Assembly: GCF_056712565.1 (NCBI RefSeq)
Contig: NZ_CM160072.1
DNA length: 64,000 bases
Reading direction: 5' to 3' (one strand)
This document shows positions 9,486-55,658 of the stretch, piece after piece. A program made the translations under genes and the position numbers. Positions within the stretch are counted from its first letter, which is position 1. Each line of letters begins with the position of its first letter. The notes below the pieces were generated by a model. That model had not been told where the DNA came from. It saw nothing but the letters and a program-made list of their open reading frames with translations, and did not search any database.

Positions 9486-9507
9486 TAATAAAACAAGGAA
9501 GTGTTCT

Positions 9508-9873
9508 ATGACGTATGGAGAAGCGTATCTGGAAGGGTGGAAAAACATCTTTAATTATGAAGGTGTTTCCAATCGCTTCGAGTTCTGGTCGTTTATGATT
9601 GGTAGTGGCGTTATCTGTCTGCTTCCGCTTTTATGTTGGTGGTTAGCGGTAACAATTAACAATGACTATGGTGTTTTCATTTTTTTTGCGCTGCCCGCGT
9701 CATTTATTTTAACGTTGATTTTTGCCATACCGGCGATAGCGTTAGCCGTCAGAAGGATGCACGATATCGGATATTCAGGGTGGTGGGTTACCATTGTCGT
9801 GTTGATCCCTGTTACGGGCGTAATTCTGCTTATACTGTGCTGCCTGCCGTCAAAGTCACAAGACCAGGCATAA
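9508..9873 (+). CDS. DUF805-family small inner membrane protein (strain-variable gene)
   Basis: 121 aa; three predicted TM helices; RRMHDIGYSGWW motif characteristic of DUF805/YhaH-like proteins; strong SD aaggaag 6 nt upstream of ATG. Confidence 0.75.
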   Translation: MTYGEAYLEGWKNIFNYEGVSNRFEFWSFMIGSGVICLLPLLCWWLAVTINNDYGVFIFFALPASFILTLIFAIPAIALAVRRMHDIGYSGWWVTIVVLIPVTGVILLILCCLPSKSQDQA

Positions 9874-51991: not shown

Positions 51992-52837
51992 ATGGCTGAA
52001 GCGCAAAATGCTCCCCTGCTGCCGGGATACTCGTTTAACGCCCATCTGGTGGCGGGTTTAACGCCGATTGAGGCCAACGGTTATCTCGATTTTTTTATCG
52101 ACCGACCGCTGGGAATGAAAGGTTATATTCTCAATCTCACCATTCGCGGTCAGGGGGTGGTGAAAAATCAGGGACGAGAATTTGTCTGCCGACCGGGTGA
52201 TATTTTGCTGTTCCCGCCTGGAGAGATTCATCACTACGGTCGTCATCCGGAGGCTCACGAATGGTATCACCAGTGGGTTTACTTTCGTCCGCGCGCCTAC
52301 TGGCATGAATGGCTTAACTGGCCGTCGATATTTGCCAATACCGGTTTCTTTCGCCCGGATGAAGCGCACCAGCCGCATTTCAGCGACCTGTTTGGGCAAA
52401 TCATTAATGCCGGACAAGGGGAAGGGCGCTATTCGGAATTGCTGGCGATAAATCTGCTTGAGCAATTGTTACTGCGGCGCATGGAAGCGATTAACGAGTC
52501 GCTCCATCCACCGATGGATAATCGGGTACGCGAGGCTTGTCAGTACATCAGCGATCACCTGGCAGACAGTAATTTTGATATCGCCAGCGTCGCACAGCAT
52601 GTCTGCCTGTCGCCGTCGCGTCTGTCGCATTTGTTCCGCCAGCAGTTAGGGATTAGCGTATTAAGCTGGCGCGAGGACCAGCGCATCAGTCAGGCGAAGC
52701 TGCTTTTGAGCACCACCCGGATGCCTATCGCCACCGTCGGTCGCAATGTCGGTTTTGATGATCAACTCTATTTCTCGCGAGTATTTAAAAAATGCACCGG
52801 GGCGAGTCCGAGCGAGTTTAGGGCAGGTTGTGAATAA
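51992..52837 (+). CDS. araC: Arabinose operon regulator AraC, C-terminally shortened (281 aa instead of 292)
   Basis: ORF 51941..52837 trimmed to ATG 51992 ([35 protein letters not shown]...); ends ...[12 protein letters not shown]; the missing tail EKVNDVAVKLS-stop is found 1.8 kb downstream at 54663..54698. Confidence 0.9.
52826..52834. repeat. Left copy of the 9-bp direct repeat GGTTGTGAA flanking the araC-yabI insertion
   Basis: Exact 9-mer also present at 54654..54662; both copies lie in the araC codons Gly-Cys-Glu. Confidence 0.7.
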
Positions 52838-53351
52838 TAAGAAAGAAGGGGGGGAACCCCCTTGCTTTCTTCATCTGACGTTATTTATATATTTCACGGG
52901 GGATTAATTTTAGTTATTTTTAGTTGAATCGTTTTACCTGAATTATTTTTTTTCTTGATAAAATATCGACAACGATTTCTTTTTGTAAAAATAAAACGAA
53001 GGCTTATGTATCGGGATACCCATCATGAACATATTGTCCGGTTGCATCAGGAGAATATATCAAGCGGTTTGTTCATCGTAGGAACACCACATTGAGCGGT
53101 TATGGCAGGCACTTCACGCCACCATAAATGCCGTTCGATGTGGCAGTTGTTGAAAAAAGTACGGCATTCTATGAAAAACGCCAGTTACTCCCTCAGAGGA
53201 GAACATGGTCTGGCAAAAGTGTAGCGGCATCAGGCGCAGCTATCTTTGTAAATTCATTCATAAAATGAATTGTATACAAAAAAATATTGAAAAATAATAT
53301 TTTTCCTTATTGATATTATTTGCTATACGTTTTTTTTGAGGGGAGATTGTG

Positions 53352-54200
53352 ATGAGCAAACGTAACGATATTACTGATGGAATATTTGCAACAACGAAAA
53401 AGTATGGATTAGTTTATACCGAAGAGTTAGGTTGGATCGATTTGGGGCATGCTCAGGGACAAGATGCCAGAATATTAAAAAGAAAATTGGAGCAAGAACA
53501 TTTTTCAACATATTACGATGAATTTCATGATTGGTATTTTCCTGTTGATTATCATCAGGAAATGGGAATTCGGAAAAAAATATTAGGAGTAGATCTTACA
53601 TTTCATACCGGTGTTTATACGAAGGTTATGGTTCGTTCATGTCTTTCACCCACTCTTAAAGCAAGAGTTGCCTTAACGTTAATGTATGGAACTGCGAAGA
53701 GGTTTGAAGCATGGCAAAACTCATTTATTTTTAACTGGTATACTGATAGCGGATTTAGTGCAGAAGATTTAGTCTCAGACTTGATTGGTTTTTATCGTGT
53801 ATTTGGAACAGGCCCCGATCCACTTTTATTGGCAAAACCTTTATCTTACACAAAAGCCTTACAAATATGGGATACATATGGAGCGCCAGGGAATTTTAAA
53901 AATACTGAGTTTACGCCATTCTTATTTACAACCCATCCTCCTTTTAAAAAAAATCAACTAATAAAAAAGAAGCTTCCAGAATGGTTAAATTATATAAAGC
54001 CATTAGATGAGTCTTTTTCAATATTGTTATATAATCAATATAATAATAGACCTGTTACTAATTATTATAAAGATAAAAACAGAATAAATCATGAGTTGTA
54101 TAGTTCATTATCAAGTTCGGGAGCTATAAAGTTTTCAGAATCTCCCTTTGAAAGACCGCTTTTTCTTTTCTTAAACCCTCATTATCCGCACAGGTCGTGA
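53352..54200 (+). CDS. Hypothetical protein, 282 aa, no signal peptide or TM segment (island gene A)
   Basis: ORF 53349..54200; ATG 53352 preferred over GTG 53349 (SD gaggggag 7 nt upstream); MSKRNDITDGIFATTKKYGLVYTEELGWIDLGHAQG...; I cannot assign a family from sequence alone. Confidence 0.6.
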   Translation: MSKRNDITDGIFATTKKYGLVYTEELGWIDLGHAQGQDARILKRKLEQEHFSTYYDEFHDWYFPVDYHQEMGIRKKILGVDLTFHTGVYTKVMVRSCLSPTLKARVALTLMYGTAKRFEAWQNSFIFNWYTDSGFSAEDLVSDLIGFYRVFGTGPDPLLLAKPLSYTKALQIWDTYGAPGNFKNTEFTPFLFTTHPPFKKNQLIKKKLPEWLNYIKPLDESFSILLYNQYNNRPVTNYYKDKNRINHELYSSLSSSGAIKFSESPFERPLFLFLNPHYPHRS

Positions 54201-54206
54201 GTAGAG

Positions 54207-54629
54207 ATGTCAAAATATATTTATATTTTATTATCATTTTTAGTTTTATTCTTTATATTTTTCTATGCTTATATCTCATTGATGTCAAAGGAACATCACT
54301 ATACACAGCATGAACTTTCCCCATTTTTCCTTTATACGCCAGAGAGTTTGCGAAATTTGCCAAACATATCAAACGTAGCCGAGTATAGCTATTACTATAA
54401 TGTTGATGATATGCAAACAAGAGTGATTGTTACATGGCGAAATATAGATAACATTTTTCTTCAGAAAGCAAAGCTAATAGATTTTTTGAAAAGAATGGGA
54501 CCGAGTCTACAAAACGATTGTATATGGTTTTTTCATGATAAAAGTGATTATGCAAATAATTTCCAGCGTTATTGCATCATTGAGCACCGTGATTCTCTGC
54601 AGGTGGAATATTTTGAGACTATCGAATGA
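54207..54629 (+). CDS. Hypothetical small membrane-anchored protein, 140 aa (island gene B)
   Basis: Starts 6 nt after gene A stop on the same strand; N-terminal hydrophobic segment IYILLSFLVLFFIFFYAYISL followed by a ~115-aa soluble domain. Confidence 0.55.
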   Translation: MSKYIYILLSFLVLFFIFFYAYISLMSKEHHYTQHELSPFFLYTPESLRNLPNISNVAEYSYYYNVDDMQTRVIVTWRNIDNIFLQKAKLIDFLKRMGPSLQNDCIWFFHDKSDYANNFQRYCIIEHRDSLQVEYFETIE

Positions 54630-54653
54630 TAGGCAGAGGGTGTCTTTTGTGCC

Positions 54654-54662
54654 GGTTGTGAA
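54654..54662. repeat. Right copy of the 9-bp direct repeat GGTTGTGAA
   Basis: Followed in frame by GAAAAAGTGAATGATGTAGCCGTCAAGTTGTCATAA encoding EKVNDVAVKLS-stop, the displaced AraC C-terminus. Confidence 0.7.
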
Positions 54663-54783
54663 GAAAAAGTGAATGATGTAGCCGTCAAGTTGTCATAATT
54701 GGTAACGAATCAGATAATTGACGGCTTGACGGAGTAGCATAGGGTTTGCAGAATCCCTGCTTCGTCCATTTGATAGGCACATT

Positions 54784-55548
54784 ATGCAAGCATTGCTGGA
54801 ACACTTTATTACCCAATCCACCGTGTATTCATTGATGGCGGTGGTGTTGGTGGCCTTTCTGGAGTCGCTGGCGCTGGTCGGTTTGATTCTACCCGGTACG
54901 GTGCTGATGGCGGGGCTGGGAGCGCTGATTGGTAGCGGTGAGTTAAGTTTCTGGTACGCCTGGCTGGCGGGGATTATTGGCTGCCTGATGGGCGACTGGA
55001 TCTCCTTCTGGCTGGGCTGGCGTTTTAAAAAGCCGTTGCATCGCTGGTCATTTCTGAAGAAGAACAAAGCATTACTCGATAAAACCGAACATGCGCTGCA
55101 TCAGCACAGCATGTTCACCATTCTGGTCGGTCGTTTTGTCGGTCCGACGCGTCCGCTGGTGCCAATGGTGGCGGGAATGCTGGATCTCCCGGTGGCAAAA
55201 TTTATTACGCCGAATATTATCGGCTGCTTGCTGTGGCCACAGTTTTACTTCCTGCCGGGGATTCTGGCGGGTGCGGCGATCGATATTCCTGCCGGGATGC
55301 AGAGCGGTGAGTTTAAATGGTTGCTGCTGGCAACAGCGGTGTTTTTGTGGGTTGGAGGCTGGCTGTGCTGGCGGTTATGGCGCAGCGGTAAAGCGACTGA
55401 CCGTTTGAGTCATTATTTGTCCCGCGGTCGTTTGTTGTGGCTGACGCCGTTGATTTCTGCCATCGGCGTGGTGGCGCTGGTGGTGTTAATTCGCCACCCG
55501 TTGATGCCGGTGTATATCGATATTTTGCGTAAAGTGGTTGGGGTTTAG
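54784..55548 (+). CDS. yabI: DedA-family inner membrane protein YabI
   Basis: 254 aa polytopic membrane protein. Confidence 0.9.
   Translation: MQALLEHFITQSTVYSLMAVVLVAFLESLALVGLILPGTVLMAGLGALIGSGELSFWYAWLAGIIGCLMGDWISFWLGWRFKKPLHRWSFLKKNKALLDKTEHALHQHSMFTILVGRFVGPTRPLVPMVAGMLDLPVAKFITPNIIGCLLWPQFYFLPGILAGAAIDIPAGMQSGEFKWLLLATAVFLWVGGWLCWRLWRSGKATDRLSHYLSRGRLLWLTPLISAIGVVALVVLIRHPLMPVYIDILRKVVGV

Positions 55549-55567: not shown

Positions 55568-55658
<91 letters not shown>

Follow-up and report, generated by a model that had tools for sequence, protein, structure and literature searches.

In the DNA stretch of 64,000 nucleotides analysed here (the window), araC stops after 281 codons, and the codons for the 11-residue tail known from E. 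coli K-12 (EKVNDVAVKLS-stop) are found downstream, directly 3' of a second copy of GGTTGTGAA. Is the DNA in between a discrete, strain-specific insertion in araC, as the initial annotation proposed, or has it come in by another route, and what may its two genes do? We have compared the slot between araC and yabI in E. coli, Salmonella, and Citrobacter. With moderate confidence, we regard the block at 52838–54662 as one of three alleles of this slot, a mosaic which should have originated from allelic replacement and which carries ORF1-ORF2 as a predicted lipid-enzyme payload, rather than as a fresh insertion in araC. The features of the region are collected in Table 1.

Table 1 Features of the araC–yabI region in the window, with the basis of each assignment.
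Feature	Position	Strand	Description and basis
araC	51992..52837	+	281-aa form, ends ...FRAGCE-TAA; annotated so in RefSeq at the identical locus
Left copy of the imperfect direct repeat, TTTAGGGCAGGTTGTGAATAATAAG	52817..52841	+	proposed 3' terminal part of the (b)-like araC allele that came in, with its TAA stop; repeat search and junction comparison
G+C-rich hairpin, then T-rich run	52839..52871	+	probable araC terminator, bidirectional by pattern; terminator scan and RNA fold
Relic of alternative island (b)	52838..53043	+	araC-pfkB spacer and first 13 pfkB/rikA codons, ATG at 53006, MYRDTHHEHIVRL; alignment to DP033 locus L003
IS630-family 3' relic	53047..53243	+	frameshifted C-terminal transposase part and right terminus; RefSeq pseudogene, blastn
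AT-rich ORF1 upstream region	53244..53351	+	putative former IS insertion target, with the ORF1 ribosome-binding site GGAG inside; read from the sequence
ORF1, WP_000044501.1, 282 aa	53352..54200	+	predicted soluble, divergent DUF4056 / CapCone-type Lipocone
ORF2, WP_000049681.1, 140 aa	54207..54629	+	predicted N-terminal transmembrane helix, then DcrB/PsbP/Mog1-like alpha/beta domain
Right copy of the repeat, TTTTGTGCCGGTTGTGAAGAAAAAG	54645..54669	+	proposed resident K-12-type araC 3' end from ~nt 826 on
Displaced K-12-type AraC tail codons (54663–54698) and araC-yabI spacer	54663..54783	+	conserved spacer; sequence comparison
yabI, DedA family	54784..55548	+	right-hand core gene of the slot; RefSeq annotation and ORF list

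The araC–yabI slot and its alleles

Much of the initial description has been borne out. The DNA between the GGTTGTGAA copies is AT-rich (34% G+C in the block interior versus 55% in the flanks), contains two co-oriented ORFs, and is extra DNA of foreign composition relative to K-12. The distance from the tail codons to yabI is 85 nt, the same as in a K-12-like genome. The hairpin just past the araC stop folds at -21.2 kcal/mol (z = -3.3) and has a terminator-like score, and a degenerate version of it occupies the corresponding position in allele (b), introduced below. As had been stated, the block contains no integrase according to the ORF list, no tRNA according to the tRNA search, and no terminal inverted repeats according to the repeat search.

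On the other hand, the block is by no means strain-specific. Actually, 486 of 5,426 complete E. coli genomes carry it at 98.5–100% identity, always at the araC–yabI site, and the carriers span several B2 lineages; S88, IHE3034, ABU 83972, ATCC 25922, LF82, and the type strain ATCC 11775 are among them. In E. coli lineage group B2, the block is a widely shared allele. It is common in reference genomes, but without an annotated function. A search for plasmid copies of the block has found none.

Besides the block, the slot is either empty, the K-12-type state (a), in 4,332 genomes, or occupied by island (b), a 5.6 kb pfkB/rikA-dap2-tctCBA island, in 582. Together, the three alleles account for 5,400 genomes out of the 5,401 that gave a match, and the empty site holds a single GGTTGTGAA. 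ST131-type B2 strains have the metabolic island in this slot, and strains which we take to be ST95 and ST73 are carriers of the 1.8 kb block. Overall, the three-allele slot (empty, 1.8 kb, and 5.6 kb) separates major B2 lineages and could be used as a typing marker. The stretch 52838–53043 of the block is itself homologous to part of island (b), and not anonymous AT-rich DNA.

Judged by sequence comparison, the block is a mosaic of three pieces: a relic of island (b), what remains of the 3' end of an IS630-family element, and a cassette with two genes. The first piece aligns to positions 9501–9761 of the DP033 locus with 89% identity in aligned columns and 63 gap columns. The second piece, in a block which was thought to contain no transposase, is the 3' relic of an IS630-family element. 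RefSeq labels it a transposase pseudogene, and its nucleotide identity to ISEc33 is ~72% across 197 nt (blastn, query 18–214). The relic is truncated on the left, at the junction with pfkB'; in the ISEc33 locus L050, the match stops 1–2 nt short of the point where the interrupted host gene resumes, so that the relic ends at the true IS terminus. IS630-family relatives of the relic are present in 2,029 genomes. An intact donor, i.e., a full IS630 element or pfkB beside ORF1, was not found among the genomes searched. Several apparent intermediate proteins were rejected, as they are error-ridden assemblies of the same allele.

The third piece, ORF1-ORF2, is an uncharacterised two-gene cassette that is widespread in Enterobacterales. 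The order araC(281 aa)-ORF1-ORF2-yabI is found in Citrobacter portucalensis and at 8 of the 8 places listed for one Salmonella AraC protein. With three alleles in E. coli and the cassette in the same slot in Citrobacter and Salmonella, the site can hardly be regarded as no hotspot. The cassettes of Citrobacter and of one Salmonella lineage have ~70% amino-acid identity to that of E. coli (between genera, 69–77% for ORF1 and 45–63% for ORF2); between ORF1 and yabI, the E. coli and Salmonella sequences align collinearly, and an AT-rich stretch of similar length lies upstream of ORF1 in both genera. In all 8 gene contexts examined, ORF2 is directly downstream of the ORF1 homologue. The cassette is AT-rich (31–38% G+C), patchy in distribution, and linked to mobile elements. 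The Salmonella and Citrobacter cassettes are closer to each other than either is to the E. coli one; together with the TGTGAATAA shared in Salmonella, these relationships would also fit an ancient presence with repeated loss, against the origin that we favour below.

As for araC itself, it does end in ...RAGCE-TAA at 52835–52837, but this end is not premature. A length of 281 aa is that of AraC in Salmonella and Citrobacter, as seen in the loci L008, L011, and L031. Citrobacter and Salmonella have the spacer motif AAAGTGAATGATG 3' of ORF2 as well. At empty Salmonella sites, the sequence is GGATGTGAA-TAA-AAAGTGAATGATG... (TGTGAA-TAA-AAAGTGAATGATG...TCATAA); therefore, the cassette lies just 3' of the ancestral araC stop, and not inside araC as had been assumed. 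As these alignments indicate, the 281-aa AraC is the ancestral form, and the 292-aa AraC of K-12 is the derived one, its 11-aa tail being a TAA-to-GAA read-through into the spacer. This corrects a tempting misreading: the 281-aa AraC of B2 strains is not truncated but ancestral, so a defect in araC should not be assumed.

Origin of the block

The 9-bp direct repeat, on which the insertion reading relied, is real in the sense that GGTTGTGAA occurs exactly twice in the window (52826–52834 and 54654–54662). However, the true repeat is longer and imperfect, with 80% identity over 25 nt. In shuffled sequence the 9-mer has on average 0.48 matches, and because 8 of 100 shuffles give at least 2 matches, it is weak evidence when taken alone.

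We have compared the junctions with a near-isogenic B2 strain with an empty site (L007). Within araC, there is 1 mismatch in nt 1–767, while there are 7 in the 76 nt from 768 to 843 (Fisher p = 3e-7). That is, the divergent araC allele comprises the last ~76 nt, from araC nt 768 (~52759 in the window), and the divergent sequence begins within araC, ~60 nt upstream of the repeat. The right flank is nearly the same as in L007 from the first base of the right repeat onward, with 2 mismatches over 121 nt followed by 6 over 1,700 nt. The right repeat copy matches the state (a) K-12-type araC end at 20 of 21 positions, the sole difference being the junction base; the right copies in Salmonella and Citrobacter share just TGTGAATAA or less. 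The Arg-Ala codons differ between the two copies (AGG GCA vs TGT/CGT GCC), as expected for two different araC alleles. Instead of a discrete insertion with a 9-bp duplication, we thus see a three-part mosaic with its left boundary inside araC.

We infer that the most likely event was an allelic replacement in a B2 ancestor with an empty, K-12-type site. The incoming DNA would have been anchored by a homologous crossover within araC, upstream of nt 768, and its far end, ~20 nt past ORF2, would have joined the resident araC at ~nt 826 via a TTT microhomology. Such a process would be homology-facilitated illegitimate recombination, and the slot could illustrate allelic replacement with a microhomology joint. 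The direct repeat would then be the overlap of the incoming and the resident araC 3' ends, and not a transposase footprint. AraC should have stayed intact because the incoming DNA brought its own stop codon, and the 11-aa tail of K-12 type would have been left stranded as non-coding DNA. An IS630-family element may formerly have been inserted in the AT-rich region upstream of ORF1. Such an origin would be at odds with any related genome in which the right repeat is already TTTTGTGCCGGTTGTGAA beside a flank that is not of K-12 type.

A second explanation, which we consider unlikely though not negligible, is a single ancient insertion right after the araC stop, before Escherichia, Salmonella, and Citrobacter diverged, with a ~9-bp duplication (TGTGAATAA), vertical descent, and many losses between the repeats. 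The E. coli block would then be a kept and further rearranged ancestral allele, and the empty K-12 site would be a deletion exposing the GAA copy and leading to the 292-aa AraC. Such a history accords with the same slot, order, and orientation in three genera, with cassette identities that parallel the host tree, and with the exact 9-bp TGTGAATAA on either side of the Salmonella cassette, of which the empty Salmonella site has one copy; moreover, GAA in the non-coding right copy would be neutral until exposed by deletion. However, a simple deletion product should retain the differences at nt 768, 813, and 816, and L007 does not have an araC 3' end of the block type. The 20/21 identity of the right copy with K-12-type araC is confined to E. 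coli, and the divergence is 9% left of the block versus an ordinary 1.7% on the right, which an old balanced allele would not predict. The three genera represent more than 100 My of vertical descent, and the persistence of the low cassette G+C content in all of them would be surprising after such a time. The pair is also placed elsewhere, at araD-polB, in Trabulsiella and Enterobacter sp. ENT03.

It is very improbable that the block is the remnant of an integrase-bearing islet which targeted the araC 3' end and supplied a substitute araC end, with the imperfect repeat (15–25 nt) as attL/attR and an integrase module lost later. Although the repeat exceeds a typical transposase duplication, the left copy re-encodes R-A-G-C-E-stop by other codons like a substitute gene end, and one site is used in three genera, neither the block nor the 8 cassette contexts contain an integrase, an excisionase, or a tRNA, the related loci have no integrase, no PHROG family matches, and plasmid copies are likewise missing. 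Furthermore, the substitute araC end runs into the (b) spacer and the pfkB homologue rather than into element DNA, and the divergence starts before the repeat, in araC.

A recent and strain-specific insertion, in which a mobile element duplicated a 9-bp target site within the coding part of araC, is scarcely credible: an exact 9-mer on both sides that is single at empty sites and the foreign base composition agree with it, but the carriers extend across several B2 lineages, the block is made of three unrelated pieces without terminal inverted repeats, the sole transposase is an internal, truncated relic of the IS630 family, whose elements duplicate TA, the left boundary lies in araC upstream of the repeat, and the 9-mer recurs by chance in 8% of shuffles.

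Predicted function of ORF1 and ORF2

From its family features, ORF1 is predicted to be a divergent DUF4056 / CapCone-type Lipocone related to TelC. Taken alone, ORF1 matches Pfam PF13265 (DUF4056) at E = 0.4, below Pfam significance. Of 20 aligned members of its family, 13 reach E <= 0.1 against PF13265, and 1 of them E <= 0.001 (best 1.8e-6); phmmer links ORF1 to these family members at ~E = 1e-38. A Foldseek search has returned DUF4056-labelled AlphaFold models and one RHS repeat-associated core-domain protein with this fold (A0A7K3WRL0, 531 aa, E = 2e-9, TM 0.53). A fold search has not recovered TelC.

The Lipocone family fold is described as a four-helix cone core with a beta-hairpin clasp or cap, and its signature comprises a His on helix H2 with Gly at six and xD at four residues upstream, and a catalytic Asp on H4 that is preceded by S/GxxSxx and has an aromatic residue plus Ser three residues upstream; an Asn four residues past the catalytic Asp is usual, but not universal, in the clade (bioRxiv 10.1101/2025.01.14.632903). 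In ORF1, the invariant residues are G27, D30, H33, S133, S136, and D139. The motif G27-W-I-D30-L-G-H33, invariant in 20 sequences, has its Gly six and its xD four residues before the predicted catalytic His, and S133-G-F135-S136-x-E-D139, also invariant, gives S-x-x-S-x-x-D with an aromatic residue and a Ser ahead of the predicted catalytic Asp. Position 143, where the clade usually has Asn, is Asp in 19 of the 20 sequences and Asn in one. ORF1 carries the active-site signature of a recently proposed superfamily of lipid-head-group enzymes, and the cassette is a cheap and specific target for toxicity and immunity assays.

These features suggest that ORF1 may be a soluble enzyme related to the lipid II phosphatase toxin TelC, and its predicted target is a lipid head group linked through phosphate, e.g., that of an envelope precursor carried on undecaprenyl diphosphate. 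ORF2, with a transmembrane helix at residues 2–26 ahead of its DcrB/PsbP/Mog1-like domain, has what one would look for in a partner: it is small, fast-evolving, membrane/periplasm-located, and encoded directly 3' of ORF1. It would be membrane-anchored and periplasm-facing, and its most likely task would be to neutralise ORF1 or to localise it, as an immunity protein does. The putative pair may have a toxin/immunity-like role.

It is possible, if doubtful, that the pair is not a toxin and its immunity protein but a self-acting envelope module, in which a lipid-carrier phosphoesterase in the cytoplasm or associated with the membrane tunes the precursors of cell wall or exopolysaccharide, or a phage defence of the abortive-infection type, with ORF2 as the sensor and ORF1 as the killer. 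ORF1 has neither a signal peptide nor a delivery domain, starting with MSKRxDI and with the domain from residue 1, and of the 648 related clusters, the best 150 consist almost entirely of stand-alone proteins, without long fusions. Neither Hcp, VgrG, PAAR, Rhs, or LXG genes nor other T6SS/T7SS neighbours were found in the 8 contexts. These observations weigh against the toxin/immunity-like reading. In addition, it has been proposed that intracellular stand-alone Lipocones act as effectors in stress or antiviral responses, and that other families are lipid-carrier enzymes with housekeeping roles (bioRxiv 10.1101/2025.01.14.632903). On the other hand, ORF1-ORF2 has no match in PADLOC, NCBIfam, or PHROGs, the first of which counts against a defence role; a fast-evolving partner and the apparent use of the fold at the tip of an RHS toxin would be more usual in conflict between bacteria; and the patchy, AT-rich, mobile-element-linked distribution is unlike that of housekeeping genes.

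Extending the toxin/immunity-like reading, one may speculate, though we deem it distinctly unlikely, that ORF1-ORF2 is an active enterobacterial conflict module of a new type. ORF1 would destroy undecaprenyl-diphosphate-linked cell-wall precursors under the restraint of ORF2, with a signal-less delivery or trigger, and the module, long kept at the ara locus, would aid the competitiveness of B2 extraintestinal pathogenic E. coli.

Comparison with known systems

Homology-facilitated illegitimate recombination, in which a homologous anchor is combined with a microhomology joint, is known from natural transformation in Acinetobacter and Streptococcus. The proposed event resembles it in the araC homology on one side and the 3–4 nt microhomology (TTT) on the other, and in the replacement of ~55 nt of recipient DNA with a gain of ~1.9 kb. 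It differs from the natural-transformation cases in that one extant allele is the basis of the inference. E. coli is not known to be naturally transformable at high rates, and the delivery could equally have been by conjugation or transduction.

In E. coli integration hotspots and slots with alternative cassettes, a fixed core-gene slot likewise houses lineage-dependent gene sets that are exchanged via flanking homology. The araC–yabI slot differs in being very small and without tRNA or integrase, and, unlike at those hotspots, one of its alleles occurs in other genera at the same position. A further likeness is with phage 21 and e14 at icd, where the element supplies a substitute 3' end of its target gene: here, too, the functional end of araC would come from the incoming DNA, with the original 3' end displaced downstream as an imperfect direct repeat. 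However, the block has no integrase or att machinery, and its substitute end would be a chromosomal araC allele, 11 codons shorter than the resident one.

As for the cassette, a DUF4056 ORF has been reported in a bicistronic unit in variable region 2 of SPI-6 in S. Kentucky (PMC11669294). By description, such orphan T6SS effector-immunity pairs are like ORF1-ORF2 in combining a DUF4056-type protein with a small partner and in being AT-rich and patchy, although T6SS genes adjoin none of the 8 ORF1-ORF2 contexts. The other relevant system is TelC/TipC of Streptococcus intermedius, together with CapCone-DUF4056. TelC is exported by a T7SS, whereas ORF1 has neither LXG, PAAR, nor a signal sequence; ORF1 also has a C-terminal extension of ~60 residues compared with its ~233-aa relatives, and ORF2 is DcrB/PsbP-like rather than TipC-like. 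What they have in common is the arrangement: a small partner with a membrane anchor follows a soluble protein, as described for Lipocone toxins and their immunity proteins.

The block and the three alleles of the araC-yabI slot

The AT-rich DNA of about 1.8 kb between araC and yabI (hereafter the block) had been described in the initial annotation as a novel, strain-specific insertion into araC. The described features of the block are real, but this reading of them is unsupported. As reported, araC ends at ...FRAGCE-TAA, the codons of the K-12 AraC tail stand directly 3' of the second repeat copy, and the 85 nt between these codons and yabI are identical in length to those of a K-12-like genome. 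The G+C content of the block is 34%, against 55% on either flank, and the hairpin 3' of the araC stop (fold -21 kcal/mol, z = -3.3) is scored as a terminator. The 9-bp direct repeat, GGTTGTGAA, does occur exactly twice in the window, but the true repeat is 25 nt long and imperfect; the 9-mer alone is weak evidence, since two or more copies are found in 8 of 100 shuffles. A transposase had been claimed to be absent, and we find the 3' end of an IS630-family element within the block (see the table). Searches of the block for Rfam families, for tRNAs and among plasmids gave no match; a weak hit to the manA-II motif of Rfam at 53204-53336, in the AT-rich ORF1 leader, reaches 22.7 bits, where the gathering score is 100 (E = 0.67), and is almost certainly due to chance. 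The literature returned nothing on the block, either for the protein accessions or for araC/yabI/island.

The block is far from strain-specific, being present in 486 of 5,426 complete E. coli genomes at 98.5-100% identity, and in all 486 it is single-copy, chromosomal and at the same araC-yabI site. The carriers include S88, IHE3034, APEC O18, ABU 83972, ATCC 25922, LF82 and the type strain ATCC 11775, and we take them to belong to phylogroup B2, in lineages such as ST95 and ST73. In RefSeq, the annotation of the block consists of a pseudogene for an IS630 transposase and of two hypothetical proteins, WP_000044501.1 (ORF1, 282 aa) and WP_000049681.1 (ORF2, 140 aa). In some carriers, such as E. 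coli E02, ORF1 is split into two ORFs, and in ATCC 25922 and 23AR1217 either ORF1 is split or three hypothetical proteins are annotated in the block. These cases suggest that a frameshift has inactivated ORF1 in some lineages, or else that the assemblies contain errors.

Empty sites were counted with a query made of the left and right flanks joined together, where a contiguous match means an empty site; 4,332 of the 5,426 genomes are of this type (allele a). Another 582 carry at the same place a 5.6 kb insert (allele b) with pfkB/rikA, the dihydrodipicolinate-synthase-like dap2, and tctCBA, which is typical of ST131 and occurs in other lineages too. The name RikA comes from Salmonella STM3547, a ribose kinase of the PfkB type (PMC13432705). 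The island displaces the entire spacer between araC and yabI, reaching to within 8 nt of the yabI start. Since 4,332, 486 and 582 sum to 5,400, and 5,401 genomes have any match at all, the slot has three alleles, i.e., empty (a), metabolic island (b), and block (c). The block is thus one of three alleles of the slot, common in B2, and it was formed around an old uncharacterised cassette, the ORF1-ORF2 pair, through recombination and IS decay. Beyond the reconstruction of the locus, what is new here is only the account of the two AraC lengths and the placing of ORF1 in an enzyme superfamily that has been proposed recently.

Coordinates of the features of the block and of related loci (bare coordinates refer to the window; L numbers are related loci)
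Feature	Location	Remarks
araC	51992-52837	
GGTTGTGAA, two copies	52826-52834 and 54654-54662	
araC-pfkB spacer and first 13 pfkB codons, allele (b)-like	52838-53043	89% identity in aligned columns, several indels
IS630-family relic	53047-53243	Begins three bases after the pfkB' part; 3' end of element, including transposase sequence
AT-rich leader of ORF1		108 nt, 3' of the IS terminus
ORF1	53352-54200	
ORF2	54207-54629	
K-12 AraC tail codons	54663-54698	
Repeat element between yabI and thiQ	55569-55600	
Allele (b) island	L003 9501-15079 (E. coli DP033)	Same slot as window 52838-54783
Split ORF1	L004 10014-10861 (E. coli E02)	
Cassette at araD-polB	L012 5862-7361 (Trabulsiella odontotermitis)	Own araC-yabI slot empty
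Cassette at araD-polB	L016 6266-7762 (Enterobacter sp. ENT03)	Own araC-yabI slot empty
Empty araC-yabI spacer	L016 970-1030 (Enterobacter sp. ENT03)	Minus strand as read
araD-polB spacer with three tandem places	L013 2602-2802	
Truncated ORF1 locus (P0057)	L014 8001-9211 (metagenome-assembled contig, Citrobacter/Salmonella-like)	

The cassette in other genera and the end of araC

Homologues of ORF1 at about 70% identity are found in Citrobacter, Salmonella, Trabulsiella and Enterobacter. The order araC (281 aa)-ORF1-ORF2-yabI is seen in Citrobacter portucalensis and in all the contigs listed for one AraC protein of Salmonella enterica. From ORF1 through yabI, the alignment of the E. coli block with Salmonella is collinear. 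Among E. coli, Salmonella and Citrobacter, amino acid identity is 92-95% for AraC and 85-87% for YabI, 69-77% for ORF1 and 45-63% for ORF2, and the cassette has a G+C content of 31-38% in all three alike. In Trabulsiella and Enterobacter sp. ENT03 the cassette lies between araD and polB, at the opposite end of the ara operon. The cassette is thus found repeatedly beside ara genes. A contig scan with the lone ORF1 protein recovered one locus, that of ENT03; an alignment query would reach further. In Yersinia, Rahnella, Hafnia and Enterobacter ludwigii, remoter pairs (about 233 aa and about 138 aa) have unrelated core genes on either side, and some of these pairs adjoin IS4 or Tn3-type fragments. 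Overall, the cassette predates the E. coli strains.

On a metagenome-assembled contig (L014), an araC about 80% identical to that of E. coli is followed by an ORF1 truncated at 177 aa, and an opposite-strand gene with a Mom domain (a phage Mu DNA-modification family) replaces ORF2, where the contig ends. This arrangement may be yet another state of the slot.

The sequence 3' of ORF2 is GATGTAAAGAAAAAGTGAATGATG...TCATAA in Citrobacter and TATTGTGAATAAAAAGTGAATGATG...TCATAA in Salmonella. A look-up with the Salmonella AraC protein gave occupied loci only, and empty Salmonella-type sites were recovered from metagenome contigs by an exact DNA pattern; they read ...GCAGGATGTGAA-TAA-AAAGTGAATGATGCGTCCGTAAAGATGTCATAA...yabI, with an AraC of 281 aa. 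From these spacers and empty sites it follows that the last 11 residues of K-12 AraC are encoded by an old stretch of the araC-yabI spacer, and that the 292-aa K-12-type AraC arose via TAA -> GAA. The cassette stands immediately 3' of the ancestral stop codon and not within the ancestral araC, so an insertion inside the gene, as first proposed, is not supported. The alleles (b) and (c) both encode an AraC of 281 aa, after which come TAATAAG and the hairpin region. The Salmonella cassette is bounded by an exact TGTGAATAA.

The empty spacer of ENT03 begins with a short tandem repeat (AAACGTAAATG / AAACGAAAATG / AAACGAAAAG) directly 3' of a TGA stop, and so differs from the AAAGTGAATGATG spacer that is conserved in Escherichia, Salmonella and Citrobacter. 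Between yabI and thiQ in the window, an element of ~32 nt matches three tandem places in an araD-polB spacer (L013) at 91-94%, and is probably a REP/BIME-type repeat.

Origin of the E. coli allele

As the reference for divergence we used CU42ET-1 (L007), a B2 strain with an empty site and flanks near-identical to the window. In araC the two differ by 1 mismatch in nt 1-767 and by 7 in nt 768-843 (Fisher p = 3e-7). On the right-hand side of the block, the 121 nt of tail and spacer contain 2 mismatches and the following 1,700 nt contain 6. This distribution indicates that foreign-type DNA begins within araC, some 60 nt ahead of the repeat, and stops where the right copy starts, at its first base. 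This right copy, TTTTGTGCCGGTTGTGAAGAA, is identical to the resident-type araC, TTTCGTGCCGGTTGTGAAGAA, at 20 of 21 positions, with the sole difference at the junction, while the right copies of Salmonella and Citrobacter match araC over a shorter length. In the left copy, the Arg-Ala codons differ from these, being AGG GCA, as in allele (b) and Salmonella.

The simplest account is that the E. coli block arose by allelic replacement. One crossover would have taken place within araC, and the far end of the incoming DNA, about 20 nt past ORF2, would have joined the resident araC near nt 826 through a microhomology of TTT; the repeat would then be the stretch where two araC alleles overlap. Earlier, presumably in the donor lineage, an IS630 element would have inserted 108 nt 5' of ORF1, and its interior would have become fused, by deletion or recombination, to a (b)-like pfkB at codon 13; the relic ends exactly at the IS terminus. 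Among the loci searched no donor or intermediate allele was found, and the candidates at 75-89% protein identity are poor assemblies of the block allele itself. Two of them, P0033 and P0039, come from loci with 98-99% identity in DNA, so their divergence reflects assembly errors.

In the main rival account, the insertion is ancient, produced a 9-bp duplication and was then lost repeatedly. This account would explain both the synteny in three genera and the Salmonella repeat, but it leaves unexplained the asymmetry of divergence and the 3' end of araC in L007. As this 3' end is not of the block type, L007 is not a simple deletion derivative of the block either.

Predicted function of the cassette

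The ORF1 family comprises 648 clusters at 50% identity, and among the best 150 of them almost all members are stand-alone proteins of 200-360 aa with the domain starting from residue 1. Two motifs are invariant, GWxDxGH (G27, D30, H33) and DSGFSxED (S133, F135, S136, D139). Pfam DUF4056 (PF13265) is matched by 13 of 20 family members at E <= 0.1 (best 1.8e-6), and is the only Pfam match of ORF1 alone (E = 0.4). The AF2 model of ORF1 (pLDDT 84) matches AlphaFold models that are labelled DUF4056, as well as one RHS core-domain protein (E = 2e-9); against the PDB, the model had no match and the family sequence profile gave nothing even at E <= 10. ORF2 as a single sequence found nothing in Pfam, its relatives are all unannotated, and in its AF2 model (pLDDT 89) a transmembrane helix at the N-terminus precedes an alpha/beta domain. 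Neither ORF1 nor ORF2 has a usable match in NCBIfam, PADLOC or PHROGs.

Immunity proteins of Lipocone toxins are described as fast-evolving and membrane or periplasmic, and PsbP/Mog1-type partners are reported for T6SS-delivered CapCone-1 toxins (bioRxiv 10.1101/2025.01.14.632903). In Salmonella, a candidate effector is a DUF4056 ORF in a bicistronic unit of a T6SS variable region (PMC11669294). In the 8 cassette contexts examined, ORF1 has no signal peptide, delivery domain or secretion-system neighbour, which counts against a secreted-toxin role, and the defence-system models of PADLOC do not match the cassette. We therefore predict that ORF1 is a lipid-head-group phosphoesterase and ORF2 its membrane partner. 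The cassette is most likely a conflict module of the toxin/immunity-like kind, and a self-acting or antiviral role is a serious alternative.

DUF4056 has been placed in the CapCone group of the Lipocone superfamily, in the same clade as the lipid II phosphatase toxin TelC (bioRxiv 10.1101/2025.01.14.632903). The signature of this clade has, on the His side, Gly six residues before the catalytic His and xD four before, and on the Asp side, S/GxxSxx before the catalytic Asp, with Phe-Ser three residues before (bioRxiv 10.1101/2025.01.14.632903). Although the "usual" Asn of the clade at +4 from the catalytic Asp is Asp in ORF1, all the listed elements of both sides are present in it.
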